27,885 bases of DNA from Verrucomicrobiota bacterium (GCA_003451935.1 DMJA01000066.1:1-27885); one strand, 5' to 3'. Shown: positions 5,426-27,300, counted from the stretch's first letter. Made by a program: numbers and translations. Notes: a model not told the origin generated them from the letters alone.

Positions 5426-5474
5426 CCAGCATTTCCGGCGAGTTGATTTGCACGCAACCTTTCACACAGAAATC

Positions 5475-5503
5475 ATCTTGCCGACAACTCTATTGCGATG
5501 CAA
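5475..5503 (-). promoter_or_regulatory. Candidate sigma70-type promoter of pilM
   Basis: Minus strand TTGCAT-N17-CAAGAT about 50 nt upstream of the pilM start. The -10 match is weak. Confidence 0.3.
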
Positions 5504-5595
5504 GCAAGGAGATTGAAAAATATTCAGGGAACTGCCCCCCCCCATTTTTTCGAGCTTGAACGGACGGGATGGCTCTCGAAACACTCCAAACGGCC

Positions 5596-5672
5596 CGGCT
5601 CGGCAGGGACGCCTCGGCCTACCCGGCATATCGGTTGTCTGGCAGGTAGGGCCGAACCCTCCGGGTGAGCCG
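5596..5672. repeat. Inverted REP doublet, same family as 110-187
   Basis: 5645-5672 GGTAGGGCCGAACCCTCCGGGTGAGCCG on plus; 5596-5623 reads GGTAGGCCGAGGCGTCCCTGCCGAGCCG on minus. Same back-to-back geometry as the 110-187 pair (21-nt versus 25-nt spacer). Confidence 0.7.
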
Positions 5673-5740
5673 GGCTCTTTTGGCAGACCTAAAACGGCGT
5701 CCGAAAATCTGAATTTGGCTTCGCCACCCCCTTCCCCCCT

Positions 5741-5779
5741 AAACAACAAACACCCTGCCGGGACCCGGCAGGGTGTTTG
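5741..5779 (-). terminator. Terminator hairpin after the pilin gene
   Basis: Perfect 15-bp inverted repeat CAAACACCCTGCCGG-gac-CCGGCAGGGTGTTTG (5747-5779), followed on minus by TTGTTT, 44 nt past the pilin stop. Confidence 0.85.
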
Positions 5780-5823
5780 GGATTGGCGACGCAGGAACGC
5801 GTCAGCCAAGAAGTGCTCCCGAA

Positions 5824-6183
5824 TTAGGGCAGCACGTGCGGGGCATCCGCCACCAAGGCGGCATTCGGACAGGTCGGATCCGTGCCCAGCGCATTGATGG
5901 TATAGACCGCACCGCCGGCGGGGCAGACAGGCATCACGCCGCCCTTGATATAGGGCGCCACATCCGCATCTGCAGGGACGGCGAGGTCGGCCGCGCCGGT
6001 GGCCAGAGCCCATTGTTCCTTGGCGGCATCGATCAAGCGCATGTTGTTAATACAGGCATTCGCGCGGGACGTATTACGGGCACGCGTGAAAGCCGGAATC
6101 GCAATGGCGGCCAAAATGCCGATGATGGCGACCACGATCATGATTTCGACCAGGGTGAAACCCAGTTTCTTGCTCTTGCTCAT
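5824..6183 (-). CDS. pilA: Type IV major pilin / pseudopilin (119-aa prepilin, 111 aa mature)
   Basis: Class III signal MSKSKKLG|FTLVEIMIVVAIIGILAAIAIP with Glu5. It has its own promoter candidate and terminator and lies downstream of the PilR-like gene. Confidence 0.9.
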   Translation of the reverse strand: MSKSKKLGFTLVEIMIVVAIIGILAAIAIPAFTRARNTSRANACINNMRLIDAAKEQWALATGAADLAVPADADVAPYIKGGVMPVCPAGGAVYTINALGTDPTCPNAALVADAPHVLP

Positions 6184-6273
6184 TCGTTTTTCCTGTTGGT
6201 TGTTGTTTTTAATCAAACCGACCCGGCTTGGTAACTCCATCCTGCTGCCGCCATTTCAATTTCTTTAATTAAA

Positions 6274-6301
6274 ATACTACTACCGCCGGGAGAATATGCA
6301 A
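6274..6301 (-). promoter_or_regulatory. Candidate sigma70-type promoter of the pilin gene
   Basis: Minus strand TTGCAT-N16-TAGTAT inside an AT-rich island (about 6255-6325). No GG-N10-GC sigma54 box was found here. Confidence 0.5.
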
Positions 6302-6375
6302 ACACAATTGTTAAAAATATATTCGGCCGAAAATCCAAGGGGTGCGGGACGTTCCAAGTCAGTCCCCGTCCTTCC

Positions 6376-7755
6376 CTACGGCCCTTTTTGCCCGTTCAAC
6401 TTATGCTGGAGGTCGGCCAGGCTGATGTTGAGATTCTGGGCGGCGGCCTTCTTGTCGCCGCCGGCGCGCTTGAGGGTCTGCTCCAGATAATCCTTTTCCT
6501 TCCGTTGCAAAAAGGCCTTGAGCGAGAGGGCGTGTTCCAGGCCCGGAAGGGCGGAGGACTTGCCACCGGCCGCCGGCGCCTTGCGGGGCGCCGCAAGAAT
6601 CTGGGGCGGGAGGTGTTCGGGCTTGATCTCGCCCCGGTTGGAAGCCAGAAGGGCATTTTGGATGCAGGTTCCAAGTTCGCGGACGTTTCCGGGCCACTCA
6701 TAGGAAGAGAGGATCCGGCACGCTTCGGGGCTGATTCCGCCCGCCTTCTCGCCGGCCGGGGTTTCCTTTTGGATCAGGCGGACGGCAATGGGCAGGATGT
6801 CCTCGGGACGGTCCCGCAACGGCGCGATGGCGATGGAAATGACACTGAGGCGGTTGAACAAGTCCTCCCGGAACAACCCCTGCTGGATCCGCTCGCGCAG
6901 ATCGGTTTGGGCGGACGCCAGCACCCGGGCGTTGATGGGGGTGTTCTGGGTCCCGCCGAGGCGGCGTACCGCGCGGTCCTGCAGCACCTGCAGCAACCGC
7001 CCCTGGACATCCATGGGCAGGGCGTCGATCTCGTCGAGGAAGACCGTCCCGCCTTCCGCCGTCTCGAACAGGCCGGCCTTGGGGGAGTCGGCCCCGGGCA
7101 CGGCCCCCTTGACGTGCCCAAACAGTTCCGATTCCAGCAAAGGCTTGGGCAGCGCGGCGCAATCCACGGACAGGAACAGGCGGTCCTTGCGCGGGCTGGC
7201 CGCATGGATGGCCTTGGCGACGCTCTCCTTGCCGGTGCCGCGCTCGCCGGTGATCAGGACCGTGGCATCCGTCGGCCCCACGCGCCGGATCATCTCGCAG
7301 ACCTTCTGCATCGCGTCGCTCGAGCCGACGAATTCCCCCACCTGCCAGCGCGATTCCAGCTGGGCCTTCAGCATCACGTTTTCCTGGAGGGCCCGGCTGT
7401 ATTCGAGGGCCCGGTGGATGGTCTTGAGCAGTTCATCGATCTTGAACGGCTTGGGCACGTAGTCGAAGGCGCCCAGTTTGAGGGCGTCCACCGCCGTGGC
7501 GATGTTGTCGCAGCCCGTCAGCAAGATCACCACCATGGACGGGTTCCGCTCGTGCGCCCAGCGGAGCAGCTCGAGGCCGTTCATGGTGCCCATGGCGTAG
7601 TCCGTGAGCATGAGGTCGAACGGCTGTTTCTCGAGAAGGGCCTGGGCCTCCTCGCCGCCCGCGGCGACGACGACCTCGTGCTGCTCCCGGTTCAGCAGGC
7701 TGCCGAGCAGCCGCCGCAGGATCGGTTCATCTTCCACCACCAGGAGTCGGGCCAT
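6376..7755 (-). CDS. NtrC/PilR-like response regulator (REC-AAA+-HTH, 459 aa) with a degenerate GAFTGA loop
   Basis: REC 'LLVVEDE...LMLTDYAM...LLTG...YVPKPF'. Walker A GERGTGKE, Walker B FLDEI, 'WPGNVREL', Fis-type HTH. Loop L1 reads ELFGHVKGAVPGA. Confidence 0.92.
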   Translation of the reverse strand: MARLLVVEDEPILRRLLGSLLNREQHEVVVAAGGEEAQALLEKQPFDLMLTDYAMGTMNGLELLRWAHERNPSMVVILLTGCDNIATAVDALKLGAFDYVPKPFKIDELLKTIHRALEYSRALQENVMLKAQLESRWQVGEFVGSSDAMQKVCEMIRRVGPTDATVLITGERGTGKESVAKAIHAASPRKDRLFLSVDCAALPKPLLESELFGHVKGAVPGADSPKAGLFETAEGGTVFLDEIDALPMDVQGRLLQVLQDRAVRRLGGTQNTPINARVLASAQTDLRERIQQGLFREDLFNRLSVISIAIAPLRDRPEDILPIAVRLIQKETPAGEKAGGISPEACRILSSYEWPGNVRELGTCIQNALLASNRGEIKPEHLPPQILAAPRKAPAAGGKSSALPGLEHALSLKAFLQRKEKDYLEQTLKRAGGDKKAAAQNLNISLADLQHKLNGQKGP

Positions 7756-7764
7756 GGGAACTGC

Positions 7765-8880
7765 CTACCCTCCAACGATCTCGCCCATCTTGAAAATGGG
7801 CAGGAACATGGCGATGACCACGCCCCCGATGATGATGCCCAGGAAGGCCATGATCAGCGGCTCCATCAGCGCCGTCAGGCCGCTCACGATGGTCTCGACC
7901 TCGTCCTCGTAGTAGTCGGCGATGCTGTCCATCATGTCGTCGATGCTGCCGGTCTTTTCGCCGGCCTGCAGCATGCGCACGAGGCCGATGGGATAGACCT
8001 GCTGGTTCATGAGGCCCGCCGACAGCGGATCGCCCTTTTCGACCGCGGTCGCCGCGTTCTCGACGATCCGGCCCGCCACGCGGTTGCCCGTGGAGCCGGA
8101 GACGATCTTCAGGGCGGTGAGGATGGGCACGCCGCTGCGCGTCATCTGGCTCAGCATCCGGGCAAAGCGCGCCGCCGCGTTGAAGCGGTTGAGTTTTCCG
8201 AACACGGGAAGCCGCAGCATCATCCCGTCCCACGCATAGGCGCCCTGCTCCGTTTTTTTCCACCGGCGGAGGGCATAGACAGCCCCCCCGATGACGGCGA
8301 TCAGGTAGAGGGCGTACTTGCGCATGAACCCGCTGAGGTCCAGGAGGAACTGGGTCGGCGCGGGCAGCGCCGCGTCGAAATCCTTGAACATGTCGCCGAA
8401 CACGGGCACCACGAAGGTGATCAGGCCGATCGAAATGATGATGCACATGCTCAGCACCACCGTCGGATACATCAACGCCGACTTGACCTTGCGCCGCAGC
8501 TTGGCGCTGGTCTCCAGGAACGTGGCCAGCCGCGCCATGGTTTCGGACAATTCGCCGCTGGTTTCGCCGCCGCCCACCATGTTGCAGTAGAGCGTGTCGA
8601 AGACTGAGGGAAATTGGCGCAGGGACTCGGACAAGGACATGCCGCCCTCGAGGCTTTCGCGGACCTGGTTGATCACCACCTTGAACGCCTTCTGGTCGGT
8701 CTGCTCCTCCATGGCTCGCAGGCAGGCCACGATCGGCATGCCGGCGCCCAGCATGGCGCCCACCTGCCGGGTAAACCCCGGCAGGTTCTGATCCACGATC
8801 TTGCCGGCGCCCGGCACCGGGATGCTTCTCTTCTTGCCGGGCTTGTCCGAAGCCGGCGGTTCCGTGCGGGAGAGGACCAT
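7765..8880 (-). CDS. pilC: PilC/GspF inner-membrane platform protein (371 aa)
   Basis: Two T2SSF repeats ('FTRQVGAMLGAGMPIV...GGETSGELSETMARLA' and 'FARMLSQMTRSGVPIL...GEKTGSIDDMMDSIADYYE'). TMs 'YPTVVL...' and 'EPLIMAFLGIIIGGVVIAMFLPIF'. Confidence 0.95.
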   Translation of the reverse strand: MVLSRTEPPASDKPGKKRSIPVPGAGKIVDQNLPGFTRQVGAMLGAGMPIVACLRAMEEQTDQKAFKVVINQVRESLEGGMSLSESLRQFPSVFDTLYCNMVGGGETSGELSETMARLATFLETSAKLRRKVKSALMYPTVVLSMCIIISIGLITFVVPVFGDMFKDFDAALPAPTQFLLDLSGFMRKYALYLIAVIGGAVYALRRWKKTEQGAYAWDGMMLRLPVFGKLNRFNAAARFARMLSQMTRSGVPILTALKIVSGSTGNRVAGRIVENAATAVEKGDPLSAGLMNQQVYPIGLVRMLQAGEKTGSIDDMMDSIADYYEDEVETIVSGLTALMEPLIMAFLGIIIGGVVIAMFLPIFKMGEIVGG

Positions 8881-8881
8881 G

Positions 8882-10609
8882 TTACTCGCCTCCGGTTACT
8901 TCCAGCGCGGCTTCCAGCGTGGTCAGGCCTTCCTTGACCCGCGCAAAGCCCGCCTGTTTCAATGAAACCATGCCGTTTTTCTCCCCCAGCGCATGCAATT
9001 CCGAACTGTTCAGCCCCTTCATGATGCCCTGCCGGATCGCATCGTTGATGAGAAACACTTCCATGATGGCGCCGCGGCCCTTGTAGCCTTTGTTGCAGCG
9101 CGGGCAACCGACGGCCTTGTACACCGTCGCGCCATCGAGCTCGTGCGGATCGATGTGGTTGTTTTTCAGGATCTCCGGATCGATCTCCGTCGGCCGCTTG
9201 CAGGCGCTGCACAATTTCCGGTAGAGGCGCTGGGCCTGGGCCAGGATCAGCGAGGACCCCAACATGAAGGGCTCCACCCCCATGTCGATGAGGCGCGTCA
9301 CCGCGCCGGGCGCGTCGTTCGTGTGCAGCGTGCTCAGCACCAGATGGCCCGTCAGCGCCGCGCGCAGGGCGATTTGCGCCGTCTCCGCATCGCGGATTTC
9401 GCCCACGAGGACGATGTCGGGATCCTGGCGGAGCACGGAGCGCAGGGCCGCGGCGAAGGTCAGGCCCACCTTGGCATTGACCTGGACCTGGTTGATGCCG
9501 GCCAGTTGGTATTCCACCGGATCCTCGCACGTGATGATGTTGACATCTTCCGTGTTCAGCTCCTGCAGGCAGGAATACAGCGTGGTGGTCTTGCCGCTGC
9601 CCGTCGGGCCGGTCACCAGGATGATTCCGTGCGGCTGGCTGATGCCGTAGCGCATGGCGTTCTCCGCGACCGGATCGAGGCCCAGCGCCCCGAGGCTGGG
9701 GGCCAGGCTGCTCTTGTCCAGCGTGCGCATCACCACCTTCTCCCCGAAGACGGTGGGCAGGATGCTCACGCGCAAATCGACTTCCTTGCCGAGGGCCTTG
9801 ATGTTGAACCGGCCGTCCTGGGGCACGCGATGCTCGGCGATATTGAGGTCCGACAGGATCTTGATGCGGGACAGCACCGCGTTCTGCAGGCCCTTGGGCG
9901 GGCCCGGTTTCTCGACCAGGTCCCCGTCGATGCGGTACCGCAGGCGCACCTTCTTTTCCATCGGCTCGATGTGGATGTCGCTGGCCCCCGTGCGCAGCGC
10001 CTCCACCAGAATCATGTTGACCATGCGGATCACCGGCGCGCCCTCGGCACTCGCCAGCATTTCGTCCAGGCTCTGCTCTTCCTCGCCGCCCTCGACGACC
10101 TGGACCTCCCCCTCCTCCTTCATGAGGGCATCGAGGTCCAATCCCTTGGTCCCGTCCGAGGCCAGCCGCTCCAGGATCGCCTGGATGTCCGGCGCCGGCG
10201 CCGCCAGCGGAACAATTCTCAATCCGGTGGAGGCCGTGAGTTCGTCGATGGCGGCCAGGTCGAAGGGATCGCCCAGGGCGACCGTGAGGGTGCGGCCCAG
10301 GCGCGCCACGGGCACCACCTTGTGGCGCTGCATCATGTCCTGCGGCACCACGTCCATCAACTCCTTGCCCACGGAGAAATGGGCCAGGCCGATCGGTGGC
10401 ATCCGCAGATACTCGGCCAGCGCCAGGGTCATCTCCACCGGCGCCACGCGATGCTTGCCCGTCAGGTATTTCTCCAGCCGGACCCCCGTCTTCAAGGCTT
10501 CTCGCTCGGCCTCGGCCAGGAGATCCGGAGTGATTGAGCCGCGCCGGAGCAGGATCTCCTTGATCTGCCCCGAATGCGTGGCTCCCGGATGTTGGTCGGT
10601 TTCGGACAT
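8882..10609 (-). CDS. pilB: PilB/GspE extension ATPase (575 aa)
   Basis: 'ASDIHIEP', Walker A GPTGSGKTT, 'EDPVEY', Walker B 'LRQDPDIVLVGEIRD', His box 'HLVLSTLHTND', tetracysteine 'CSAC...CPRC', and an N-terminal T2SSE_N domain. Confidence 0.96.
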   Translation of the reverse strand: MSETDQHPGATHSGQIKEILLRRGSITPDLLAEAEREALKTGVRLEKYLTGKHRVAPVEMTLALAEYLRMPPIGLAHFSVGKELMDVVPQDMMQRHKVVPVARLGRTLTVALGDPFDLAAIDELTASTGLRIVPLAAPAPDIQAILERLASDGTKGLDLDALMKEEGEVQVVEGGEEEQSLDEMLASAEGAPVIRMVNMILVEALRTGASDIHIEPMEKKVRLRYRIDGDLVEKPGPPKGLQNAVLSRIKILSDLNIAEHRVPQDGRFNIKALGKEVDLRVSILPTVFGEKVVMRTLDKSSLAPSLGALGLDPVAENAMRYGISQPHGIILVTGPTGSGKTTTLYSCLQELNTEDVNIITCEDPVEYQLAGINQVQVNAKVGLTFAAALRSVLRQDPDIVLVGEIRDAETAQIALRAALTGHLVLSTLHTNDAPGAVTRLIDMGVEPFMLGSSLILAQAQRLYRKLCSACKRPTEIDPEILKNNHIDPHELDGATVYKAVGCPRCNKGYKGRGAIMEVFLINDAIRQGIMKGLNSSELHALGEKNGMVSLKQAGFARVKEGLTTLEAALEVTGGE

Positions 10610-13381: not shown

Positions 13382-13410
13382 ATGCTACGTCCCGAGCTAG
13401 AATATGTCAA
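13382..13410 (-). promoter_or_regulatory. Near-consensus sigma70 promoter of the beta-propeller gene
   Basis: Minus strand TTGACA-N17-TAGCAT. The predicted +1 is only a few nt before ATG 13372, so the mRNA may be nearly leaderless. Confidence 0.65.
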
Positions 13411-13504
13411 TTGGCAGCCCCCCCCCAGGTTGCCCTTGTGGTTGTCCATTTCTTGGGGCATATTCCGGTCCATGGACGGGTTCTTCCAGAATGGAGGAAT
13501 GGGC

Positions 13505-16500
13505 ATGGGAAAGATCGGGCGGACCGGCATGCTTCTCTTGTGGGTGTTGCTTCTTCCGGCGCCCGTCCTAGCTGGCGATTACACCTACACCACGAATTCC
13601 TCCAACCCCGATACCATCACCCTCACGGGATACAACGGGCCGAGTGGCGTGGTGGACATTCCTTCCAGTTTGGATGGCAAGACCGTCACCGCGATCGGGA
13701 ACAATGCCTTCCGCGGCAATACCGGACTAACGGGCGTCCACATCCCCGCCACCGTCGACTCCATCGGAAGCTATGCCTTCCAGACCTGTACCAGCCTGAC
13801 GAACATCTACCTTCCCGATGGCGTCGCTTCCATCGGAAACTATGCCTTCCACGATTGCTCGAACTTGCGGAACGTCCTCATCCCCGGCAGTGTCGCTTCC
13901 ATCGGAACCGGTGCATTCCAAGGATGCTCTGGACTGACGGGCGTCGCCATCGGCAACGGCGTGGCCACACTTGGAAGCTATGCGTTCTATGGATGCACCC
14001 GGCTCTCCAACGTCATCCTTCCCGACAGTGTCACCTCGATCCAAGATCGCGCTTTCGACGCCTGTACCGGCCTGGCATCCATCTCCATCACGGAGGGAAA
14101 CCCCACCTATTCCAGCCGGGACGGAATCCTGTTCAACAAAACGCAGACCGCGCTCATCCAACATCCCGGAGGCCGGGGCGGTGTCTTTGCCGTTCCCGAT
14201 GGCATCACCTCGATCGGGAACTATGCATTCTGCGGCCGCACCGGCCTGGCCACCATCAGCCTCCCCCCCACCCTCGTCGCCATCGGCAACTATGCGTTTC
14301 AAGGGTGCACCGGACTGACAAGTCTTGACCTCCCCGACGCCGTCGCCACGATCGGAAGCTATGCGTTCTCCGGATGCACCAGCCTGCGAAGCATCAATAT
14401 CCCGGGCGCCCTCTCTACAATTGCCGCCAGCACATTTCAAGGTTGTTCCGGCCTGACGGGCATCCAGATCCATGATGGCGTTGTCGCCATCGGAAACAGC
14501 GCGTTCCAAGGATGCTCCGGTCTGGCGGATGTCGCCATCGGCAGCGGCGTGGCCACGATCGGGAGCCAGGCGTTCTACGGTTGCACACGGCTCGCGGACA
14601 TCGCCATCCCCGACGCCGTCGCCACAATCCAGGATCGCGCCTTCGACGGTTGCACCCGCCTGGCCTCCATTTCTGTCGCGGAGGGCAACCTCGCCTATTC
14701 CAGCCGGGACGGCGTGCTCTTCAATAAATCCCAAACCGCTTTCATTCAGCACCCGGGAGGCCAGCAAGGGGCCTACGCCATCCCCGCCGGAGTTGCCTCG
14801 ATTGGAAACTATGCCTTCTGCGCACGTACCGGCCTGACGCACATCGACATCCCGTCCACGGTCGTTTCGGTCGGGGCCTATGCATTCCAAGGATGCACCG
14901 GGCTGACGAGCGTCCAGATTCCCGATGGCGTTGCCTCGATCGGCAACTATGCGTTTCATGGCTGCACAAGCCTGAGAGACATCAACATCCCCGCCAGCCT
15001 CTCTGCCATCGCCGCCGGGACGTTTCAGGGCTGCGCCGGCTTGACAAGCGTGGCGATTCCCGATGGCGTCGCTTCGATCGGAACCTATGCGTTCTATGGG
15101 TGCTCCGGCCTTGCCGGCATCGACATCCCCGCCAGCGTCTCCACAGTCCAGGAGCGTGCGTTCGATGGATGCTCCCGCCTGGCCGCCATCTCCGTCGACG
15201 AAGGCAACGACGCCTATTCCAGCCAGGACGGCGTCCTGTTCAACAAGGATCAAACCGTGCTCATCCAGCATCCCGGCGGCCAAGGCGGGGCCTACAGCGT
15301 TCCCGACGGTGTCACCTCCATCGGAAACTATGCGTTTTGTCTCCGCCCCGGCCTGACGAGTGTGGGACTCCCCGGCACCCTCGCTTCGATTGGAAACTAC
15401 GCATTCCAGGGATGCACCGGGCTGACGCATATCGGCATCCCCGACAGCACCGCCGCCATCGGCATCGGTTCGTTTCTGGGCTGTTCCGCCCTGAAGAATG
15501 TCACGATGGGCAACGGCGTCGCCACGATTGGGAGCAGCGCGTTTCAAGGGTGTATCGGCTTGACGGACATCACCGTCGGCAATGACATCGCCACAATCGG
15601 CAGTTACGCCTTCTTCGGCTGTTCCAGCCTGGAGACCCTGACCATCCCCGACAGCGTCGCCACGATTCAGGATCGCGCGTTCGACGGGTGCTCCAGTTTG
15701 ACCTCCATTTCCGTGGCGGAGGGCAACACCGCCTATTCCAGCCGGGATGGCGTCCTCTTCAACAAGACGCAGACCACGCTCCTCCAACATCCCGGCGGAC
15801 AGGGCGGGGCCTATGCCGTTCCCGACGGTGTCACCTCGATCGGAATCTATGCGTTCAACGGCCGTACCGGCTTGGCCGGCATCAACCTCCCCTCCACTCT
15901 CATCTCCATCGGCAACTATGCGTTCCAAGGGTGCACTGGGCTGACCAGCATCGGCATCCCCGACAGTGTCGTTTCGCTCGGAAGCTGCGCACTCCAAGGA
16001 TGCACTGGACTGACCAACGCCTTGATAGGCAATGGGGTTTCCGCGATTGGCGGCCTTGCGTTCTACGGATGCTCCAGCCTGGCCTATATCGATCTCCCCG
16101 ACAGCGTCGCCACGATTCAGGACCGGGCGTTCGATGGGTGCTCCAGTTTGGCCGCCATTTCCGTCGCGTCGGGCAACTCCGCCTATTCCAGCCGGGACGG
16201 CGTCCTGTTCAACAAAGATCAAACCAAGCTCATCCAACATCCCGGAGGTTTGGGCGGACCGTATGCCGTCCCCAATGGCGTCGCCGCGATTGGGGACTAT
16301 GCGTTCAACGGCCGCACCGGCCTGACGAGCGTTGTCCTCCCCGATGGCGTCACCTCCATCGGCAGCTATGCGTTCCAAGGCGGCACCGGCCTGGAGGAAA
16401 TCATCCTCCCTGGCAGCGTCGCCTCGATTGGAAGCGGGGCCTTTCTGGGCTGTACCAGCCTGGGACGCGTTCATATTCCTGACGGCGTCACTTCAATCGG

Positions 16501-18142
16501 CAATGGCGCGTTCCAAAGTTGCTCCGGCTTGACGAATGCCATCATCGGCACCAACGTCACCACCATCGGAAATTCCGCATTCTACAATTGCTCCGGACTG
16601 ACAGGCGTGGCCATCCCCGCCAGCGTAACCTCGATCCAGGAACGCGCGTTCGATGGTTGCTCCAGTTTGACCGGCATTTCCGTCTCGGCGGGCAATCTGG
16701 CCTATTCCAGCGTAGACGGGATCCTCTTCAACAAGACCCAAACCGAGCTCCTTCAATATCCGGGTGGCAAGGAAGGGGCATATGCCATCCCCCCCGGCAT
16801 CGCGACAATCGGCAACTTTGCGTTCAACGGACGCACCGGCCTGACCGCCATCGATATCCCCGCCGGGGTCACCTCGATCGGGAACTATGCGTTTTATGCT
16901 TGCACCGGACTGACGAACATCACCCTCCCCGACAGTATCGTCGCAATCGGCAGCTATGCGTTCTGCGGGTGCTCGAGCCTGACAAACATCCATCTCCCCG
17001 AAGGTGTCGTCTCGATCGGGAATGGCACCTTCCAGAGTTGCACCGGATTGACCGGCATCCGCATCCCCACCGGCGCCACCGCGATTGGGAATTACGCGTT
17101 CTATGGGTGCAGCGGGCTGACAAACGCGGCAATCCCCGGAAATGTCACTTCGATCGGGAGCTATGCCTTCTTCGGTTGCTCCACCCTCTCCGGCGTGGAC
17201 ATTCCCGACAGTGTCATCTCAATCCAGGATCGCGCCTTCGACGCCTGTCCCGACTTGGTCGCCATCTCCGTTGCGGAGGGGAACCCCGCCTATTCCAGCT
17301 TGGATGGCGTTCTCCTCAATAAGGACTTGACCCTTCTGGTTCAATGCCCCGGCGCACGGTCGGGCTCCTACTCCATTCCCGGCCGCGTCGCCACGATCGG
17401 GAACTATGCGTTCAATGGGTGCACAGGCCTGACGGATGTCGTCATGGGCGGGGCCGTGACGACGATCGGCGCCCATGCATTTGAAGGATGCCTCAACCTC
17501 GCCGCGCTGGTCGTTCCAGGCGGCGTGATCCATGTCGGCATCTCTGCGTTTGACGGATTTCCCGGCGCTTTGTATTTCCAAGGAAACGCCCCCGTATTCG
17601 AACACCACCTCCCGGGCTTGGCTTCCATCTACTACTGCCTCGGCACATCGGGTTGGGATGCCTACACCTCCCCCAAAAGCATCTGGACGAGCGTTGCGGC
17701 CTTCGAGGCCGGCGAAGGAATGCCGTCGTATGCGAGCCAGACCGGCAACGTGGGCAATGCCTACGGCGTGTTGCCGACGGCAACCCGCCCAGGCTTTGCG
17801 TTTGGCGGGTGGTGGACGGAGGCAAATGGCATGGGCACCCATGTGTTCACCAATTCAACCGTCCCCTATGTGACCACGGGGCATGTGCTTTATGCCCATT
17901 GGACCGAAACGCCGGCGCTGGATGCAGAAGACGAGGTGCGGTTCCTCTCCGACAGACTATCCTTTGGCCTCCCGACCGGCTATTCGGCCTGTATGGTCGA
18001 ATGTGCTACCGTCGTGACGAACGGGGCGTGGAATTTCTCGCCCCTGGATGCGAATGAATACGGAATATCGAACGGCACCGTGACCTTGTATTATTTACCG
18101 GAACGTCCCAAGGCCATTTATCGGGCGCAATTCAGCCCGTAG
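13505..18142 (+). CDS. BspA-family (TpLRR/LRR_5) surface protein with a Listeria-Bacteroides (InlB B-type) repeat and a C-terminal domain (1545 aa)
   Basis: ATG 13505 with GGAGG 7 nt upstream. Sec signal 'MGKIGRTGMLLLWVLLLPAPVLA'. Dozens of 23-aa 'LTSIxIPDxVxSIGxYAFxGC' repeats. 'LPTATRPGFAFGGWWT...VLYAHW' at about 17690-17905. Confidence 0.92.
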   Translation: MGKIGRTGMLLLWVLLLPAPVLAGDYTYTTNSSNPDTITLTGYNGPSGVVDIPSSLDGKTVTAIGNNAFRGNTGLTGVHIPATVDSIGSYAFQTCTSLTNIYLPDGVASIGNYAFHDCSNLRNVLIPGSVASIGTGAFQGCSGLTGVAIGNGVATLGSYAFYGCTRLSNVILPDSVTSIQDRAFDACTGLASISITEGNPTYSSRDGILFNKTQTALIQHPGGRGGVFAVPDGITSIGNYAFCGRTGLATISLPPTLVAIGNYAFQGCTGLTSLDLPDAVATIGSYAFSGCTSLRSINIPGALSTIAASTFQGCSGLTGIQIHDGVVAIGNSAFQGCSGLADVAIGSGVATIGSQAFYGCTRLADIAIPDAVATIQDRAFDGCTRLASISVAEGNLAYSSRDGVLFNKSQTAFIQHPGGQQGAYAIPAGVASIGNYAFCARTGLTHIDIPSTVVSVGAYAFQGCTGLTSVQIPDGVASIGNYAFHGCTSLRDINIPASLSAIAAGTFQGCAGLTSVAIPDGVASIGTYAFYGCSGLAGIDIPASVSTVQERAFDGCSRLAAISVDEGNDAYSSQDGVLFNKDQTVLIQHPGGQGGAYSVPDGVTSIGNYAFCLRPGLTSVGLPGTLASIGNYAFQGCTGLTHIGIPDSTAAIGIGSFLGCSALKNVTMGNGVATIGSSAFQGCIGLTDITVGNDIATIGSYAFFGCSSLETLTIPDSVATIQDRAFDGCSSLTSISVAEGNTAYSSRDGVLFNKTQTTLLQHPGGQGGAYAVPDGVTSIGIYAFNGRTGLAGINLPSTLISIGNYAFQGCTGLTSIGIPDSVVSLGSCALQGCTGLTNALIGNGVSAIGGLAFYGCSSLAYIDLPDSVATIQDRAFDGCSSLAAISVASGNSAYSSRDGVLFNKDQTKLIQHPGGLGGPYAVPNGVAAIGDYAFNGRTGLTSVVLPDGVTSIGSYAFQGGTGLEEIILPGSVASIGSGAFLGCTSLGRVHIPDGVTSIGNGAFQSCSGLTNAIIGTNVTTIGNSAFYNCSGLTGVAIPASVTSIQERAFDGCSSLTGISVSAGNLAYSSVDGILFNKTQTELLQYPGGKEGAYAIPPGIATIGNFAFNGRTGLTAIDIPAGVTSIGNYAFYACTGLTNITLPDSIVAIGSYAFCGCSSLTNIHLPEGVVSIGNGTFQSCTGLTGIRIPTGATAIGNYAFYGCSGLTNAAIPGNVTSIGSYAFFGCSTLSGVDIPDSVISIQDRAFDACPDLVAISVAEGNPAYSSLDGVLLNKDLTLLVQCPGARSGSYSIPGRVATIGNYAFNGCTGLTDVVMGGAVTTIGAHAFEGCLNLAALVVPGGVIHVGISAFDGFPGALYFQGNAPVFEHHLPGLASIYYCLGTSGWDAYTSPKSIWTSVAAFEAGEGMPSYASQTGNVGNAYGVLPTATRPGFAFGGWWTEANGMGTHVFTNSTVPYVTTGHVLYAHWTETPALDAEDEVRFLSDRLSFGLPTGYSACMVECATVVTNGAWNFSPLDANEYGISNGTVTLYYLPERPKAIYRAQFSP
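13690..17560 (+). repeat. Intragenic 69-nt LRR repeats grouped into seven super-modules
   Basis: The motif TATTCCAGC (Tyr-Ser-Ser of 'YSSRDGVLFNK') occurs at 14108, 14696, 15215, 15734, 16184, 16703 and 17291. Confidence 0.9.
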
Positions 18143-18341: not shown

Positions 18342-21300
18342 CTATTCCTCGTCGACCTGGATGAGATACAGGCCGATGCCGCCGATGTCCGTGTCGAGGT
18401 ATTCGTTTCCTTCGGGATCGGCGGGGATGCCGGATTCGATGGCCTGGAAGCCCTGGATCAGGTTTGTTGAACGCAGGATCTTGTAGCGTTCGTCCACGCG
18501 GCCCAGCCAGCGGATCCAGACGCCGTTCGTCCCAAGGCTCACGGGGCTTTGCAACTTGAGGGCGATCGCGGTGCGCTCGAACGGCCCATAGACCTGCAGG
18601 TCGCCGGAGGTTTCCACCTCCACCAGCCGATAGGTGTAGGTGCCGCCCGCCACCGCCCCGGCGTCCACCAGGGAATACGCCGTGCCGAAGCCGTCCACGC
18701 CCTGGGCATAGAGGATGTCCTTATTCACCCGCACCCAGGCGCTGCCATCCCAGCGCTCCACATAGAACCCGACGGTGTCTTCCTCCGAAGCCGTCCGCCA
18801 GCGGACCACCACCTGGTCGTTTTCCTCCCCGGCGGTGAAGCTGTACAGCACCACGCGGGTGGTGGAATAAGGCTGGAAATAGATCTGATCGATTTCAGTG
18901 GCCTGGGCCCCGTCTATTGTCTGAACCGCGACGACGCCGAAATACCCGTTGGATTCCAGCGTGGAATCCACGCCCGTGCCTTGGAAGACGGTGGCATTGG
19001 CGGGGACTTCCGTGGCCACGCTGCCCTCGCCATTGGTGGTGGGCAGGACGGAGGTGTAGAGCTCCCACACGCCGGCGCTCTTGCGGCCATGGGTGACCCG
19101 GATCAGGAACCCGACGTCCGTCAGCCCGTCGACCAGCGACTCCTCCGAAGTCAGGATGGTGGCATCGGCGACGCCATTCGTGACCCGTTCCAGACGGATC
19201 TTGTCCCCATAGGTGCTGTCGCCTCCAATCGCCAGGCGATAGCCATCCACCGTGGAGGATTCCAGGTCGGCTTCGTTCGCATACAGCCAGATGTACATGC
19301 GGTTGGCGGTGGCGAACTCCATGTTCCGGCGCCCCACCCACAGGCCCCATTCCTGGGAAACGCCCCAGTACGCGATCTGGGTCCGCAGTTGGTTCGTTGC
19401 CGTACCCGCCGGGCCATTCTGCCGCAAGGTCTGGGAGCCCGTGGCGCCGGCGCCCGCATCGCTGTCGGCCACAATGATCCAATTGGTTGTATCGCCGGAC
19501 CAGACAGGCGACCCCGTGAAATTGCCGTCTATGAAACCATCCAGCGGGGCGGACGCCGTGATGAGCACGCTGGTGACCCCCGCCAACCCGCCGCCATTCG
19601 CGGCAATCGTGAATTCCCCGGCCTCGCTGTACTGAAGCGCGGTCCAGGTGTAGGCACCCGTGACCAAAGATTGGGCACCTCCCCCGCTCAAGGTCCCGGA
19701 TCCGCTGGCCTGGCCGAGGGTCACGCTGACGATGGAATCCACATCCACGTTCTGGTTGGCATCCTGCGCCTGCACGACGGCGCTGAAGTTCTGGGCGATG
19801 GGCACCACGGTGGCGAGCGAGGCGAACGCCAGCTGGGTGGCCGCGACGATGATCCGGTTGCGGTCTCCGGTCACGTCGGTCGCGGCGCCGCCGGCGTCGG
19901 CGGCCGCGAAGATCGACCCGGCGCTGTCGGCCGTGGCGCTGGCGACCGTGAAGGTCAACTGCGCGTTGTCGGTGACGGTGCTGGCGAAACTGGCCAGGAC
20001 TTTGAAAGTCTTGGTGGCGCCATCCGCGGCGGACAGGCCGGCCAGGTTGGTGAACACCACGGTGGTGCCGCCGTAGCCTTCGGCGATTTCGGTGGTGCCG
20101 TCATAGAGCGCCACCCGGCGCAGGTTGTCGCCGTTGGCGACCGTGAAGGTGATCGCCGTCAGCGTGGTCCCAAGCGCATCCGAATCGGCGGCGCCGCCGC
20201 CGTCGCGGATCGTGAAGCTGCCGACTTGCAGGGACGACGACGTCAGGTTGGTTTCCTGATAGGAGCCATAGGCGATGCTGGAAAACTCGGTGAAGCCGGA
20301 GTCGCGGATGATGTCGGAGTCGGCGCTATAGGTGCCCGTCCCGGTCACCACCTTGTCCTTTTGCGTCGCACCAGCGCTGGTGTGCGTGAGGACCGAGTTG
20401 TACACCCCGGCCGTGGCCGGCTTGAACCGCACGAAAATTGTCGTCTCCGCCACGGTCCCGCTGGATGGCGTCAGCGAAATCGCCGAGGAGCTGAAACCCG
20501 AGCCGCTGGTGAGGGAGATCTCAAATCCCGGCGGGGGGGTGATCACGATGTTGGCGCCCAGGTTCACCCCCGACACCGTGTAGGACTGCTCGGCGGACGC
20601 CACATTGGTCACCACGCTGCCGAACGCCAAGGCGTCGCCCGAAACCAGGATTCCGGGGGTCGTGGAATCCACATCCACGATTCCGAAGATATCCAGGCCA
20701 TAGCTGTTGTCGGCACGGGAATAGAACCCCCACGCACCCGTTCCGGTCTGTCCGCTGGCAAAGTAGCGCAGGGTCACCGTCGCGCCTTCCGTCAGGTTTT
20801 GGAGGGCGGACACCCCGGAGAAATCCCACGCGCGGGTGAGGCTGGTGGATTCCAACGGGGATCCGATCCAAGTGAAATTGGTCCCGTCCAAGCTGTAGGC
20901 CCACTGGTCCCGGACACCCGTATAGTTGATGACATTCGTGTAGAAACTTGGGGTGCCCGCGAATCGGCCCGTGATGCTCGTCAGCGAAAGCTTGTGGCCA
21001 GGGGCGGAGGACAGCGTCACCTGGTAATAGTCGTTGCTGTCCAGCGCAATGCCCTCGTTGCCAAATCCGGTGGTCCGGAAGGAGTTGGTGCCGGTGCTGG
21101 CCGGGGCGCCCGCCCCGCGGGTGATGTTGGAAGAACCGTCCATGCTGGCGTTGTACACTTCCGCGGTCCATGTCGCTGGATAGGGCGAACCCGCCCCGGT
21201 GAAATCCCAGGCCGCGAGGCTCGAAGGGCCGAGGGTCACCGCCACCTCCACCGTCTGCGTCGCCACGCCCGCGAGGTTGCTGGCCGTGAAGGTGAAGGTG

Positions 21301-24300
21301 TTCGTCTTGCCCCCTTCGGACAACGGCGGCGTGTAGCTCAACTCGCCTGTCCCCGCCGTGAATACATAGCCCGACGGGGCCGTCGTGCTTTGCAGCGCCA
21401 GCGTGGGTGCGGGCGCGCCCGAGGCGGTTTCCGTGAAGACCAAGGCCACGCCCGTGGTCGTGGCGTACGGGCCGGCGCCGCCTGTGAAGGCCGGCGCCGA
21501 AGCCGCCGTCACCACGACGCTGACGGTTTGGGTCGCCACGCCCAGTTCGTTGCTCGCCGTGAAGGTGAAGGTCTTGGTCGTCCCTCCATCGGCCAGCGGC
21601 GGCGTGTAGGTCAGGACGCCCGTCGCCGGAACAAAGTCGTAGCCCGAGGTGGCCGTCTGGGATTCCAAGGCCAATGCGGGCGTCGGCCAGCCGGTCGCAC
21701 TCACCGTGAAGGCCGTCGCCACTCCCGACGTCGCATACTGGGTCCCCAACGCATTGAACACCGGGGCGTTCGAAATGACCAGCGTGCCGTTGGTCGAGCC
21801 TTGGTAGAGGAGATCGTTCACGATGCCCGTCACGGCGTAGCTGCCGGCATTGCTGGGCGCGGTCGCCGAGCCGTCATAGGTGACGTCCACGGACAAATCC
21901 GCCGGAACGGTTGTCACCGTGACGGTCTTGGCGTTGCCGTCCCACATCTGCGCCAGGTTGCCCAGGGTCACGGTCGCCTTGGCCTTGGTCACGTTGAACG
22001 TGTTGGTCACATCCGGCGCCGGATCCCAACTGGTATTGCCGGCCTGCGAGGCCACGATGCTGACGGTCCCCGACGTCGAGAACGTCAGGTTCGTGCCACT
22101 GGCGATCGACCCCGGCCCGCTGGCCACCGCAAAACTCACCGGCAGGCCGCTGGAGGCAATCGCCGTAAGCTTCACCAAATTCGTCGCGGTCTGGTTGTCG
22201 ATGGGCGCGAAGTGGATGGCCTGCACCCCCTTCGTGGCCACGCTGGCCACGGAGGAATAGGTGCCGGTGCCGATCGCCGAAACCGCCCGCGCACGGAAAT
22301 AATAGGTCGCGCCAGCCGCCAGTCCCGTCACGGACTGGCTCGTGCCCGCCACCGTCAGATTTGAATAGCCGGGGATGTAGGCCGGCGTGGCCAGCGAGCC
22401 TTGGATCAGGATGTCGTCACCCGCGCCTTCGAAGCCCAGGGCGCCGCCGGAGGCTCCCCCCCACCCCGCCAGCCGGAAGGTGATGGCGCCGGATACATTC
22501 TGAAACGCGGGAACTCCGTTCAGATCGCAAGACAAGGCAAGAGCGGCCGTGTTGGTCGCCATTCCATTGGTCGACACCAGATTCGTCGCATAGCCGTCAT
22601 GGCTTGCCCGCAGCGCGAGATTGGAGGCACCGGTGGCGGACCGCTGGATGTTCAGGAGGATGTTGGTGATGGACATTGTCACGTGGTCAGCGCCCGGCTG
22701 GATGGTCCACTCGAAATATTCGCCTGCCGCCAATGCGGCCGCGGCATCCGCGAAGTTGGTGGACCAGCCACCGGCGTTGAACCGGCCCGCATTCGCCGAA
22801 GCCGTCAATCCCGTGCCGCGGGTGATATAGGCGGGAGCCTGCATGTGGGTGGCCGCGAAGGTGGAAATCCCCTGCGCCTCGTCGCCCGCATAGTCCGCAA
22901 AGTCGAAGGCGATCAAGTTGGTGTTCGCGCTGCCGGCCGTGAAATTCGAATTCGCTCCGACATCGAGCCGGTAGCTCGTTGCGCCCCCCGGCGCGCCCCA
23001 GGCCGCCGTGAAGTCCGCGGCGTTCATCGCGCTCGCCCAGATCGGAGCCGGTGCCGCGGGCAGGCCCTCGGCCACCACCACGCTGACCACCTGCGTGTCC
23101 ATGCCCAGGCTGTTGCTCGCCGTGAAAGTGAATGACACATCGCCAACATCCGCATACGGTGGTGTGTAGGTCAGCAGGCCCGTCGCAGGGTTCAAGGTAT
23201 AACTGCCGGGCGTTGCCCCGGTATCCGCTTCCACCACCGCAAAGGTGGGAGGCAAGCCCTGGACGCTCACGGTGAAGGACATCGGCACCCCCGACGTTGC
23301 GTATTGCGTTCCCAGCGCGTTGAACACCGGCGGCGCATGCACGGCCACGCTCACCACCTGCGTCACCACGCCCAAGCTGTTGCTCGCCGTGAAGGTGAAG
23401 GTCCGCGTGCCCGCGTCCGCCAGCGGCGGCGTGTAGGTCAGCATGCTGGGGCTGGTGCCGTTCGTCCAGCCATAGGAGCCGCCGGTGGCCGTCGTGCTTT
23501 GCAGCGCCAGCGTGGGTACGGGATCGCCGGTCGCGCTCTCCGTGAAGGTCAACTCCACGCCATTCGTCGTGCTGTAGCTGGTCCCGCTGGTGAAGAACGG
23601 CGCCAGATCCACCGTCGTCACGCTCGCCACCGACGAATATGTCCCGGTGCCCAGCGCCGAGGCCGACCGCATCCGGAAGTAGTACAGGGTGTTCGGTGTC
23701 AGCCCCGTCACGGAATGGCTCGTGCCGGAAACCGTCAAATTTGAATAGCCGGGGACGTAGGAAGGATCGCCGCTGACGCCGGTCACGGTAAATGAACCCG
23801 CGGGCGGCAGGGCGTTTGTCACCGTGTTGCTGACCGTCCAGTTGTTCGTGTTGCCGATGGCGGCCAGCAGCTCCGCCTTGGTGCCGGCTGTAACACTCAT
23901 GCCATAGACGAAATTATCCACCTCGTTCAAGGCGATGGCCGTTGTTCCATCAGTCAATCCCGTGGGAAGGCCGGACGATTCGGTATTCGTTGCGCTGGCC
24001 TGCCAGCCGATATCTTGGCTATTGACCGCGTAAATCATGGTCGTGGACGAGGCCGTCTTTTGATAAGCGAGAATCTGGTCGCCGGAAGCGGACAAGGCAA
24101 AGGAAGTGCCGGAAACCGTCCCCGTACTTGCTGTCGCGCTCGGGGTAATCGACACCATGGTCCCGGCCATGATGGGATTGGCGGTCGAATTCGACCAAAG
24201 CACGATCCCCTCCCCTGTCCGGAAGTGGTCGTTCGTCCACCCGTTCTCCGTGAAGTAAATGGCCGTGCCCACGTCGAGATTCGCCAAGGCGAGAAACGTG

Positions 24301-27300
24301 AACCGATCGGCATCGAAGTTCGCCCCGATGATGGCGATGTCGCCGGCCGTGAGCGTGGACACCGGCGCGGCCACATTGCCAAGGAACATCGCGTTCGTGC
24401 TGACATCCAGCCGGTAGTTGTCCGAGGCGTTTGCCACCGCGGTCCAGGCCGCCGTGAAGTCCGCGGTGTTCGTCGCGCTCGCCCAGATCGGGCTCGGCGG
24501 GGGAGGCAGGCCTTCCGTCACCGTCACCGACACGTTCGTCGTCGCCACGCCCTGGCTGTTGCTCGCCGTGAAGTAGAAGGTCTGGGTGCCGACGTCCGCA
24601 TAGGGCGCCGTATAGGTCAACACGCCCGAAGCCGGATTGAAGCTGTAGCCACTCGTCGCCGTCGAATTCGTCAAGGCCAGCGTGATGGGCGTGGGATAGC
24701 CGCTGGCGCCGACCGTGAAGGCCATCGCCACATCCGTCGTCGCGCTCTGCGCCGCCAGCGCGTTGAACACCGGCGCAGCGTACACCGTCACGGTGACGGT
24801 CTGCGTCGCCACGCCCAGTCCGTTGCTCGCCGTGAAGGTGAAGGTCCGCGGCCCCGCGTCCGCCTGCGGCGGCGTGTAGTCCAGCGTGCCCGTCGCATTG
24901 GTGAACCAGTAATAGCCGTTCGAAGCCGTCGTGCTCTTCAGGACCAGCGCGGGGGTCGGCGCCCCGGTGGATGTGTTCACGGTGTAGGTGGCCATCGCCA
25001 CCCCGGCCGTGGCGCTCAGCGCGATGGCGTTGGTGGCGAATTCCGGCGCGGAGCCCCCCACCCACACATAGACGGTCTGCGTCGCCACGCCCACGGCGTT
25101 GCTCGCCGTGAAGGTGAACGTCCGCTCGCCGCTCTCCTCCTCCGGCGGGGTGTAGGTCAGCACGCCCGTATTCGTCGCGGCCGGGAAGCTGTAGCCGTTG
25201 GTGGCCGTCGTGCCTTGCAGCGCCAAGACGGGCGCATCACCCGACGCGCTCACCGTGATGGCCGTCGCCACCCCCACCGGCACGTAGAAGGTCCCCGTGC
25301 CGCTGGTGAAGGCCGGCATGCTTTCCCGGGTCGTCACATTCGCCGTCGGCGAGGAATTGGTGCTCGTCCCCGTTCCCGCAACCGTCCACACCCGGAAGTA
25401 ATACGTCGAATTCGTCGTCAGATTCGTCACAATTTGGCTCGTGCCCGAAACCGTCCGGTTCGAATAGCCTGGGACGTAATCCGGCGTACCGCCGCTCGGC
25501 TGGGTGATGGACACATCATCCACCCACAATTTCAGATCGCCCGTTGAAGTGTACACGTAAAGGACGCCAAAATAGCTTGCTGTGGTATGAGTGGTTTCCG
25601 TGGCCGGCGTCCCATAGGAGGTCAGCGCATCGAAGTTCCCGTTCGTGTCCACCTTGAGACTCCACTCCCCTGCCGCAGTCCGGATCACTTCGATTCCGCC
25701 CGCATATGTGTTGCTCACAGTGGTCTGCCAATTCAATCCGCTGTTGATGACTTCGGTTGCCGCCCCGGCCGTGACTTCCCAGAGTCGCAAAATATCGTCG
25801 GATAGCCCGCCATAATTCACCCCCACGATGTACCCGTTGACCGTGCCCTTCCTGGTCATCTGCGCGGCATCCTGATCCGCGGACAGGAATACCGACCAAT
25901 AGTTGCCAGCCGAAGGAAGGTTTGCATGCTTCACCTGCATCCGCCAGGTCGTGTCGGCAGCCGTCAAATTCAAACCAGAAAGGGCATATGAAATCTGATT
26001 CGAGTTCGCCACGGTGTCATTATAGACCTGCTGCAATGAATACGTCCCATTGAGAGGATTGGTCGGAGACGCCATCCATCGGTCCGCAGGGCTTTGCGTC
26101 CAGCCCGTCAATAAACCGGATTCGAAGCCGTTGGATAAAATCGTTGTGGTCCCTGCGCTGCCAGACTGGAAATTGGAGTTCGTGCTGACATCGAGGAGGT
26201 AGCTGGTGGCGCCGGAGACCGGGGTCCAGGCGGCGGTGAAGTCGGTGAAGTTCGTCACGCTCGCCCAGATGTTGGTTGGGGCGGCGGGGGGAGTGTCGCT
26301 GACGGCCACGGTCACGGTCGTCGTCGCCACGCCTTCGGTGTTGGTTGCCCTGAAGTAGAAGATTTTGGAGCCCAGGTCCCCGACGGGCGGCGTGTAGTTC
26401 ACCGTCAGTTCAGTGCCGTTCGTCGTGCAGGTGTAGCTGCCCCCCGTCGCCGTCGAGTTCGTCAGGGCCAGCACGGGGTCGGGATAGCCGGTCGCGCTCA
26501 CCTTGAACGTCAGGAGCGAATCAACATAGGCCGTCTGCGCGCCAAGGGCATTGAATTGAGGCGGCGCAAGCCCCGGAATGATGGTCAGCGTGGTGTTCGA
26601 GGATCCCGTGTAGCCGGGCGAGGCGATCGTCGCCACCACCGCGTAGTCGCCCGTGGCGATCGGCGGAGTGGCCGAACCGTTGTAGGTGACGGCCACGTTC
26701 AGGAAGGCGGGAACCGTCGCCACCGTGACGGTCTTGGCGTTGCCGTCGTACATCTGCGACACGTTCGACACGGTGACCGTCGCGGCAAGCGGGTTGTAGG
26801 GCAGGACCACGATGTCGTCGAGGTTCATCATGCTGCTGTTGTTGCTGTTCGACGTCACTTGGAAGCGCAGATAGGTCGCCGGGCCCAGCGCCAGGGTGTT
26901 GGAATAGGCCAGGAAGGTGAGCTTGTTGGTGACCAGCAGGTTGGTGTGGCTGGTCCAATCCACGCCGTTGGCGCTGGTCTCCAGGGACAACTCGCATTTG
27001 GTGGAGGTTCCGTACAGGGCATAGTTGAACGCCACGGAATGGATGCCGTTGGAGAACGGCGTCAGGCTTTGCATCACGCCGTTGGTCGAGATGTCGTTGA
27101 CATAGCGCAGGCGGATGGACTTCAACCCGTTCGTCACGTCGTTCGTCGTGCTGCTGGTGATGGCGTTGTTCAAATACCAGACGGCGGGATTGGTGGCGGA
27201 CAATGTCCGGTTGACGGGAACGTAGCTCGAGGGAGGCGTGTAGGTTTCGAAATCGATGACGTAGGATGCGCCAACGGCCCTGCTGACCGTGGAGGTGTCC

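Follow-up and report, generated by a model that had tools for sequence, protein, structure and literature searches.

Split fibronectin type III domains as candidate sockets for replaceable passenger domains in giant proteins of Verrucomicrobiota

Split stalk domains in known adhesins and in a verrucomicrobial giant protein

The closest described counterparts of the system considered here are the RTX adhesins, in which ligand-binding domains (PA14, CBM, peptide-binding, and vWFA) bud from a discontinuous extender domain of the BIg type (PMC10865825, PMC12077191). Isoforms of these adhesins that are otherwise near-identical are reported to swap a single ligand-binding domain (~28% versus >75% identity) (bioRxiv 10.1101/2025.09.30.679566). 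Here we describe a comparable arrangement, built on fibronectin type III (FnIII) domains, in a giant and putatively secreted protein encoded on a 27,885-nucleotide stretch of DNA from an uncultured Verrucomicrobia bacterium (GCA_003451935.1 DMJA01000066.1:1-27885; "the window" below). The protein, P0001, is read from a minus-strand open reading frame (ORF) of which 3180 aa lie in the window, the 5' end being cut by the contig end. In three of its FnIII units the sequence is interrupted at one and the same site, after 'Y.LDV..N..F' and before 'Y[VI]PGYSN', each time by a different insert (Table 1). Half-domain profile hidden Markov models (HMMs) match each copy at E 1e-21 to 1e-26; the N-halves are mutually 54-61% identical and the C-halves 51-55% at the protein level, and the three inserts are mutually unrelated (BLASTP, best E 0.35). 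An earlier reading of this DNA, made from the sequence alone (the sequence-only reading), had named the common split site, located and sized the inserts, and called them unrelated, and on each of these counts it was exact. The observation is real and far beyond chance. We propose, with a probability of about 0.8, that P0001 is a giant secreted, fibre-like surface protein in which this FnIII subfamily serves as a socket for passenger heads that are replaced as cassettes over evolution.

Like the RTX adhesins, P0001 presents a discontinuous beta-sandwich stalk domain in a giant, probably fibrillar surface protein, wrapped around a complete foreign domain with adjacent termini, which is what the sequence and the AlphaFold2 models discussed below indicate for P0001. 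In both sets of proteins, moreover, the split domain is missed by standard domain searches. Pfam reports fn3 in P0001 for the second half of unit 2 only (whole-protein E 2.8e-08, 34.3 bits) and leaves the first halves unreported. The two also differ. The host fold is FnIII here but BIg in the RTX adhesins; their split follows the first strand or precedes the last two, whereas that of P0001 falls in mid-domain, at the C-C' loop; and the proteins come from Verrucomicrobiota instead of Gammaproteobacteria. Further, the sockets are dispersed along the protein and across many genes (13-20 N-half matches per genome in near-complete congeners), whereas those of the RTX adhesins lie in one C-terminal ligand-binding region, and the breakpoints could here be mapped to conserved half-motifs. 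Searches of the 3180 aa in the window, which begin downstream of the N-terminus, gave no RTX/HemolysinCabind match in Pfam or NCBIfam (the latter yielding only a subthreshold tandem-95 match), and no beta-roll, type I secretion signal, or retention module was found in P0001, which ends in a different, beta-rich tail. Judged by its sequence, then, P0001 is not an RTX adhesin.

The sequence-only reading had presented the arrangement as an undescribed scheme of adhesin diversification. This is too strong, since split Ig-like domains and swaps of ligand-binding domains are published for RTX adhesins in the three studies cited above. As for split bacterial FnIII domains, no paper was found in the literature searched, which is absence of evidence only; the sole hit was the eukaryotic HCF-1 with its "interdigitated Fn3". 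In the papers searched, we met with no counterpart of the FnIII scaffold, of the phylum, of the scale, or of such exactly placed breakpoints, the principle itself being known from RTX adhesins.

Other proteins offer looser parallels. In RrgA and GBS104, the tip adhesins of Gram-positive pili, a vWA domain is inserted in a loop of a CnaB/Ig-like stalk domain, but this is a single fixed insertion per protein, in sortase-assembled pili with isopeptide-stabilised domains, and no family of interchangeable passengers is known there. In eukaryotes, the hybrid domain of integrin beta, with its inserted vWA-like betaI domain, illustrates how a large insertion can split an Ig/Fn3-like beta-sandwich, and in HCF-1 the two interdigitated halves associate non-covalently after cleavage; both are single fixed cases, in which no cassette diversity is known. 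Finally, contiguous bacterial FnIII domains of the same subfamily ('Y.LDV.T...F..Y..GY.N..V...T...V.GL...T.YY.RV.A') share both half-motifs with the units of P0001 but lack the insert in the C-C' loop.

The predicted joined FnIII fold and its passengers

Several lines of evidence support the formation of one FnIII domain from the two halves. A joined-half profile built from seven copies in the source genome can be aligned over its full length, without a gap where the halves meet, to a natural contiguous FnIII domain encoded on another contig of the same genome (C142; 'YRVDVATDAAFTQILPSYNN...', E 1e-22). AlphaFold2 models made with family alignments for units 1 (aa 528-858) and 2 (aa 1122-1436) reached predicted local distance difference test (pLDDT) scores of 89.7 and 90.3 and predicted template modelling (pTM) scores of 0.72 and 0.77, respectively, each with three strands preceding the insert and four following it. 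On exhaustive structural alignment with VIA-align, solved single FnIII domains superpose on these models over 88-96 residues that span both halves (root-mean-square deviation, rmsd, 1.6-2.3 Å; Z 11-14). For unit 1, the integrin beta4 FnIII domain 3f7q_A covers 92 residues at 1.6 Å over model residues 5-328, and for unit 2, single solved domains cover 88-96 residues at 1.7-2.3 Å over model residues ~3-306. The integrin beta4 domain attains Z 13.4 and 14.1 on the two models, and the sDscam FnIII domain 7y8h_B aligns 93 of its 93 residues. A Foldseek search of PDB with the unit-2 model matched each half to a different domain of multi-FnIII chains (rmsd ~30 Å), a result that is uninformative on assembly, which was settled by VIA-align. 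The models thus support a seven-strand FnIII beta-sandwich (A, B, C, C', E, F, G), in which 'Y.LDV' forms strand C, 'Y.PGYSN.TV' forms strand C', and the passenger occupies the C-C' loop between them, much as had been expected of the discontinuous halves.

Among the top 150 proteins from a search of 1.84 billion representatives, 556 of the 580 units with paired N- and C-halves are contiguous and 24 are split, which bears out the premise of the sequence-only reading that the half-motifs normally lie side by side. In the source genome, by comparison, all seven high-scoring copies are split, with inserts of 147-230 aa, next to the one contiguous copy on contig C142. When N- and C-half HMM hits were paired at ~60 loci from genomes of the same class, 88 nonredundant units resulted, 85 of them split by inserts of 141-228 aa and three empty; as these loci were chosen by their similarity to P0001, 85/88 is not an unbiased frequency. 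The inserts fall into nine BLAST families, the largest of which, with 58 members, was formed by single linkage across weak similarities. The subfamily is therefore normally contiguous, with the split state strongly enriched in this lineage, and the catalogue envisaged by the sequence-only reading does contain both at least nine unrelated insert families at the same site and empty forms.

Pfam and NCBIfam returned nothing significant for the three inserts of P0001 or for their in-line relatives. The model of insert 1 aligns with ERGIC-53 (8jp4_A; VIA-align Z 17.9, 199 residues, rmsd 2.8), a legume-lectin-like protein of Entamoeba histolytica (Z 16.6), and calnexin (Z 16.4), and Foldseek recovers calreticulin, the lectin domain of Staphylococcus Aap, and ERGIC-53 at a probability of 1.0, with CBM66 also among the structural matches; sequence identity to these is 6-14%. 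The model accordingly displays a ConA-like/L-type lectin fold, a two-sheet curved beta-sandwich, and so bears out, as regards the fold, the label "lectin-like" that it had been given; since the fold is common to glucanases too, lectin activity is not proven by it. Many genomes of the class have relatives of insert 1, 37-46% identical to it, that stand free as tandem domains. Those nearest to it (49-50%, in G487 and G428) are nested in split FnIII domains, as is a more distant one (G230).

Insert 2 has no Pfam model, and a profile search of PDB gave no solved structure. Of the top 150 hits, 94 contain members of its family, 152 copies in all; 144 of these are free-standing, often directly behind a signal peptide, and eight lie inside split FnIII domains. 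Matches among AFDB clusters (TM by hit up to 0.77) are to unnamed proteins or to ones labelled PEP-CTERM, LTD, SLH, T9SS, or endonuclease I, and they include eukaryotic algal proteins. In the family alignment, a set of acidic and aromatic positions (GD, FTDNGW, EG, SGDQ, DN.Y, NW) is invariant or nearly so, and these may form a putative Ca2+- or ligand-binding site. For insert 3, no family was found by Atlas, Pfam, or PDB sequence searches; its paralogues (59-67% identity) sit inside split FnIII domains on contig C290 of the source genome and in a congeneric genome, G248. Other split copies in the source genome carry an LTD domain (contig C70, Pfam E 1.4e-13) and two different domains of ~150 aa. 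All inserts examined are complete, autonomous domains, as is indicated by the free-standing occurrence of the same insert types. The set of passengers thus comprises a legume-lectin-fold domain, LTD domains, ~150-aa domains that are probably jelly-rolls, and two uncharacterised families, and these are most likely candidate ligand- or glycan-binding heads.

Replacement of passengers between congeners and competing explanations

The congener G248, a metagenome-assembled genome (MAG; CALMBO01), has two tandem giant genes, A and B; the ORF of gene A (3855 aa; G248_A) is collinear with P0001 and 70-90% identical to it. Residues 1-572 of P0001 correspond to G248_A 1170-1738 (69-83% identity) and residues 803-~2120 to G248_A 1909-~3226 (71-90%), while residues 573-802, that is, insert 1, have no match in G248_A, nor was any homologue of this insert found in G248. 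Instead of the 230-aa lectin-fold domain, socket 1 of G248_A holds an unrelated domain of 170 aa, between collinear flanks that are 75% and 82% identical over ~150 aa on each side. Free-standing domains of the same proteins share 31-35% identity with it; against Pfam and NCBIfam, the 170-aa domain gave weak F5/8-type-C and Reelin-subrepeat matches below threshold, which are leads only. The homology of the DNA (81%) breaks off around codon 570, within 'TNSNF', and is picked up again (78%) around codon 803, at 'YVPGY'. The other two inserts have been retained, insert 2 being 85% identical at the orthologous G248 site and insert 3 78% identical at that of G248_A.

A second orthologous socket, compared across nine congeners, presents the same picture. 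Flank identity is 68-92% for most of them (57-74% for G411), and the inserts belong to at least four to five types, mutually 22-29% identical. In a sliding-window DNA comparison of G335 with G029, identity runs at 87-92%, drops to 14-39% exactly between the half-motifs, and returns to 86-92%. The insert of G335 is, in turn, ~80% identical to that of G414, although the upstream flank of G414 is only 61-73% identical to that of G335. This incongruence between flank and insert argues for recombination and against divergence in place. Comparison of orthologous loci, which the sequence-only reading had singled out, has therefore uncovered alternative inserts at both sockets, and the sequences indicate that cassette replacement happens on an evolutionary scale. 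What survives of the earlier proposal, that cassettes are exchanged by recombination between conserved flanks, is that congeners carry different inserts and that homology breaks at the half-motifs; of programmed switching no sign was seen in the ORFs and sample contigs scanned.

An alternative to replacement is that the inserts of orthologous sockets descend from one ancestral domain, diverged past recognition in situ under diversifying selection. Many sockets do hold inserts that resemble each other in size (~145-150 aa) and probably in fold; Gly/Ser linkers of a similar kind open the inserts; and the 58-member family is held together by weak similarities under single linkage. This explanation is nonetheless very unlikely, as the two occupants of socket 1 differ in length by 60 aa and each has closer relatives elsewhere: those of insert 1 are FnIII-embedded copies in other families of the class, and those of the G248 insert are free-standing domains of the same proteins. 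The GC content of insert 1 (0.56, against 0.64 for the gene) points to import, and at the second socket the upstream flank of G335 is far nearer to that of G029 than to that of G414 (92% versus 70%), in phylogenetic incongruence with its insert.

At the other extreme, the exchange might be a programmed, high-frequency switching of the pilin/VSG type, in which half-motif DNA would act as recombination sites and heads would be exchanged between units or drawn from silent copies. The coincidence of the breakpoints with the half-motifs in two independent sockets and the many paralogous units per genome would fit such a mechanism, as would a locally conserved 29-mer in the C-half. The sequence-only reading had built on the last of these in describing the DNA flanks as near-identical: the 29-mers, at 23732 and 22352, are real and have two differences, but they are a local peak, the FnIII halves of the three units being 69-75% identical as DNA with longest exact runs of 11-23 nt. 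Within-gene flanks of this kind tell against switching, as does the stability of inserts 2 and 3 between congeners. Further, all seven units of the genome lie within long ORFs, with no silent cassettes seen; Pfam detected no recombinase domain in ten neighbouring ORFs (two of them lacking any Pfam match, with some small ORFs unscanned); and the sample contigs, which are of low depth, show no alternative joints at the junctions. We consider programmed switching very unlikely.

That the split domains or their differing inserts are artefacts of chimeric repeat joins is scarcely credible. It is true that all the genomes are MAGs, that the gene is repeat-rich, and that in P0001 the two tandem G248 genes seem to be fused, which could reflect a collapsed assembly (see below). 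The same architecture is, however, present in dozens of genomes assembled independently of each other, with 85 units altogether, and in 24 units from the global set of proteins, and no reading frame is broken. Both insert-1 junctions are spanned with 0 differences (25061-25633 and 26083-26541) in an independent unitig assembly, the Logan contigs of the source-type sample, and paralogous flanks share exact runs of 23 nt at most, too few k-mers for an assembler to form chimeras exactly at both junctions. On these grounds artefact, in-situ hyper-divergence, and programmed switching were all rejected.

In the socket reading, which we favour, each FnIII domain of the subfamily would act as a "split domain", with a complete, beta-rich domain of 140-230 aa nested in its C-C' loop. 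The N and C termini of the passenger would meet at the socket through short linkers, Gly/Ser-rich in most cases, so that it could hang sideways from a stalk of Ig-like and FnIII domains. Breakpoints in or beside the conserved half-motifs would then give congeneric species different heads in the same socket, presumably through homologous recombination at the flanks, and the giant protein as a whole would be displayed on the surface, where it may serve as an adhesin. A number of points weigh against this reading in whole or in part. The linkers are flexible in the models (pLDDT <50 at model residues 48-50 of unit 1), so that the passenger need not project rigidly or at a fixed angle. With DNA identities of 69-75% and exact runs of 11-23 nt, the flanks are ill suited to frequent exchange of the RecA type. 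Among 301 genomes of the class, none could be identified as the recent donor of insert 1, the best matches being the 49-50% relatives noted above. Finally, besides the uniform reliance on MAGs, only one study, probably the source itself, holds the stretch, at 4-6x depth. Overall, of the interpretation first put forward, the single FnIII domain made from two halves, the recurrence of inserts, and their replacement in evolution have stood, while the near-identity of the flanks and the claim to an undescribed scheme have not.

A more ambitious version would cast the subfamily as a dedicated, evolvable "docking port", whose half-motifs act as standard junctions at both the protein and the DNA level, and through which a shared pool of at least nine binding-head families is shuffled by recombination between ports, genes, and genomes, in Verrucomicrobia and perhaps in other phyla, in a manner unlike that of the RTX split domains as regards both fold and junction. 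We hold this version tentatively, as a possibility that falls short of an even bet.

Gene context and implications

The MAG to which the window belongs is fragmented (308 contigs, 1.85 Mb) and 66% complete; the window makes up the whole of its contig C129. The source-type sample is a hydrocarbon metagenome. A Pfam scan of P0001 reports MBG_3, fn3, Big_9, and He_PIG domains, and three further, free-standing domains of the protein are distant homologues of socket occupants (Table 1).

Table 1. Features of the giant protein P0001, with positions counted along the window
Feature	Residues (aa)	Position	Strand	Evidence and remarks
Giant secreted multidomain protein P0001		18342..27884	-	MBG, Ig-like (He_PIG/Big_9-type), and FnIII domains plus C-terminal beta-rich tail; ORF listing, translation, Pfam
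Free-standing jelly-roll-type domain, homologue of G248_A socket-1 domain	205-363	26796..27272	-	BLASTP 31% identity, E 1e-10
FnIII unit 1, N-half (strands A, B, C)	531-572	26169..26294	-	Half-motif aa 562-572; N-half HMM E 3e-21; AlphaFold2 strands E13-18, E21-25, E32-40
Insert 1, ConA-like/legume-lectin-fold domain (230 aa)	573-802	25479..26168	-	VIA-align and Foldseek on AlphaFold2 model
FnIII unit 1, C-half (strands C', E, F, G)	803-856	25317..25478	-	Half-motif aa 803-812; C-half HMM E 9e-26
FnIII unit 2, N-half	1125-1167	24384..24512	-	Half-motif aa 1157-1167; N-half HMM E 6e-21; AlphaFold2 strands E11-18, E21-26, E35-41
Insert 2, uncharacterised autonomous domain with 'GDIAI...FTENGW...SGDQ' motifs (208 aa)	1168-1375	23760..24383	-	
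FnIII unit 2, C-half	1376-1428	23601..23759	-	Half-motif aa 1376-1385; C-half HMM E 8e-26; Pfam fn3 profile positions 41-83 only
FnIII unit 3, N-half	1607-1648	22941..23066	-	Half-motif aa 1638-1648; N-half HMM E 5e-22
Insert 3, domain without recognised family (187 aa)	1649-1835	22380..22940	-	
FnIII unit 3, C-half	1836-1888	22221..22379	-	Half-motif aa 1836-1845; C-half HMM E 2.5e-25
Free-standing in-line distant homologue of insert 3	2219-2393	20706..21230	-	BLASTP 27-28% identity, E 2e-06, to insert 3 and its G248 orthologue
Free-standing in-line distant homologue of insert 1	2781-3003	18876..19544	-	hhalign with insert-1 family profile: probability 98%, E 1.7e-13, 197 columns

Comparison with G248 also bears on the two ends of the protein. 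The N-terminus of G248_A (G248:C4:28725-40289, minus strand) looks by eye like a signal peptide ('MTKSNRYFCALLGFALWGAALSAEA'), followed by 'LQVRVATWNV', which resembles the start of endonuclease/exonuclease/phosphatase-type domains; the full-length giant protein may thus carry an N-terminal enzyme domain that lies outside the window. Toward the other end, P0001 has a fusion-like pattern: residues 1-~2120 track gene A, and the match from ~2100 on is to the C-terminal third of gene B next to it (67-92%), the region concerned being window 18342-21800 (aa ~2036-3180) as compared with G248:C4. This looks like the outcome either of a ~9.8 kb deletion between homologous Ig-like repeats of the two tandem giant genes or of a collapsed assembly. 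Still longer open frames, of 12,700-13,600 aa and with many FnIII N-half matches, are present in the congeners G335:C2, G059:C16, and G029:C2.

The remainder of the window holds a type IV pilus/type II secretion system-like cluster (325-10609, minus strand) that encodes a secretin, an N-methyl pilin, a sigma54-type response regulator, a PilC-like T2SSF protein, and a PilB-like T2SSE protein with an MshEN domain; this region and the plus-strand segment 10709-11581 also include a separate MshEN-only protein of 290 aa. Convergent with the giant FnIII gene is a plus-strand gene (13382-18142) for a BspA-type leucine-rich-repeat protein of 1586 aa (LRR_5, E 2e-287).

The split FnIII domains furnish a simple annotation rule: in the huge and otherwise unannotatable surface proteins of Verrucomicrobiota, a distance of 140-230 aa between half-motifs points to a candidate ligand-binding domain. 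Several of the families so exposed have neither a Pfam model nor a solved structure, as exemplified by the insert-2 family, found in 94 of the top 150 hits. In evolutionary terms, the split-domain adhesin architecture is peculiar neither to RTX adhesins nor to BIg folds, a second scaffold in a distant phylum pointing to convergence, and the sockets supply clean natural cases of head exchange at fixed junctions, with the breakpoints mapped. They are also of interest for protein engineering: FnIII monobody scaffolds usually carry short loop grafts, whereas in nature the C-C' loop of FnIII tolerates whole domains of 25 kDa. The findings may therefore be of use in adhesin research, in the annotation of genomes of the PVC group, and in protein engineering. 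If the docking-port version holds true, these bacteria would possess a means of modular diversification of surface recognition, and their FnIII domains would provide a blueprint for loop-grafted display.

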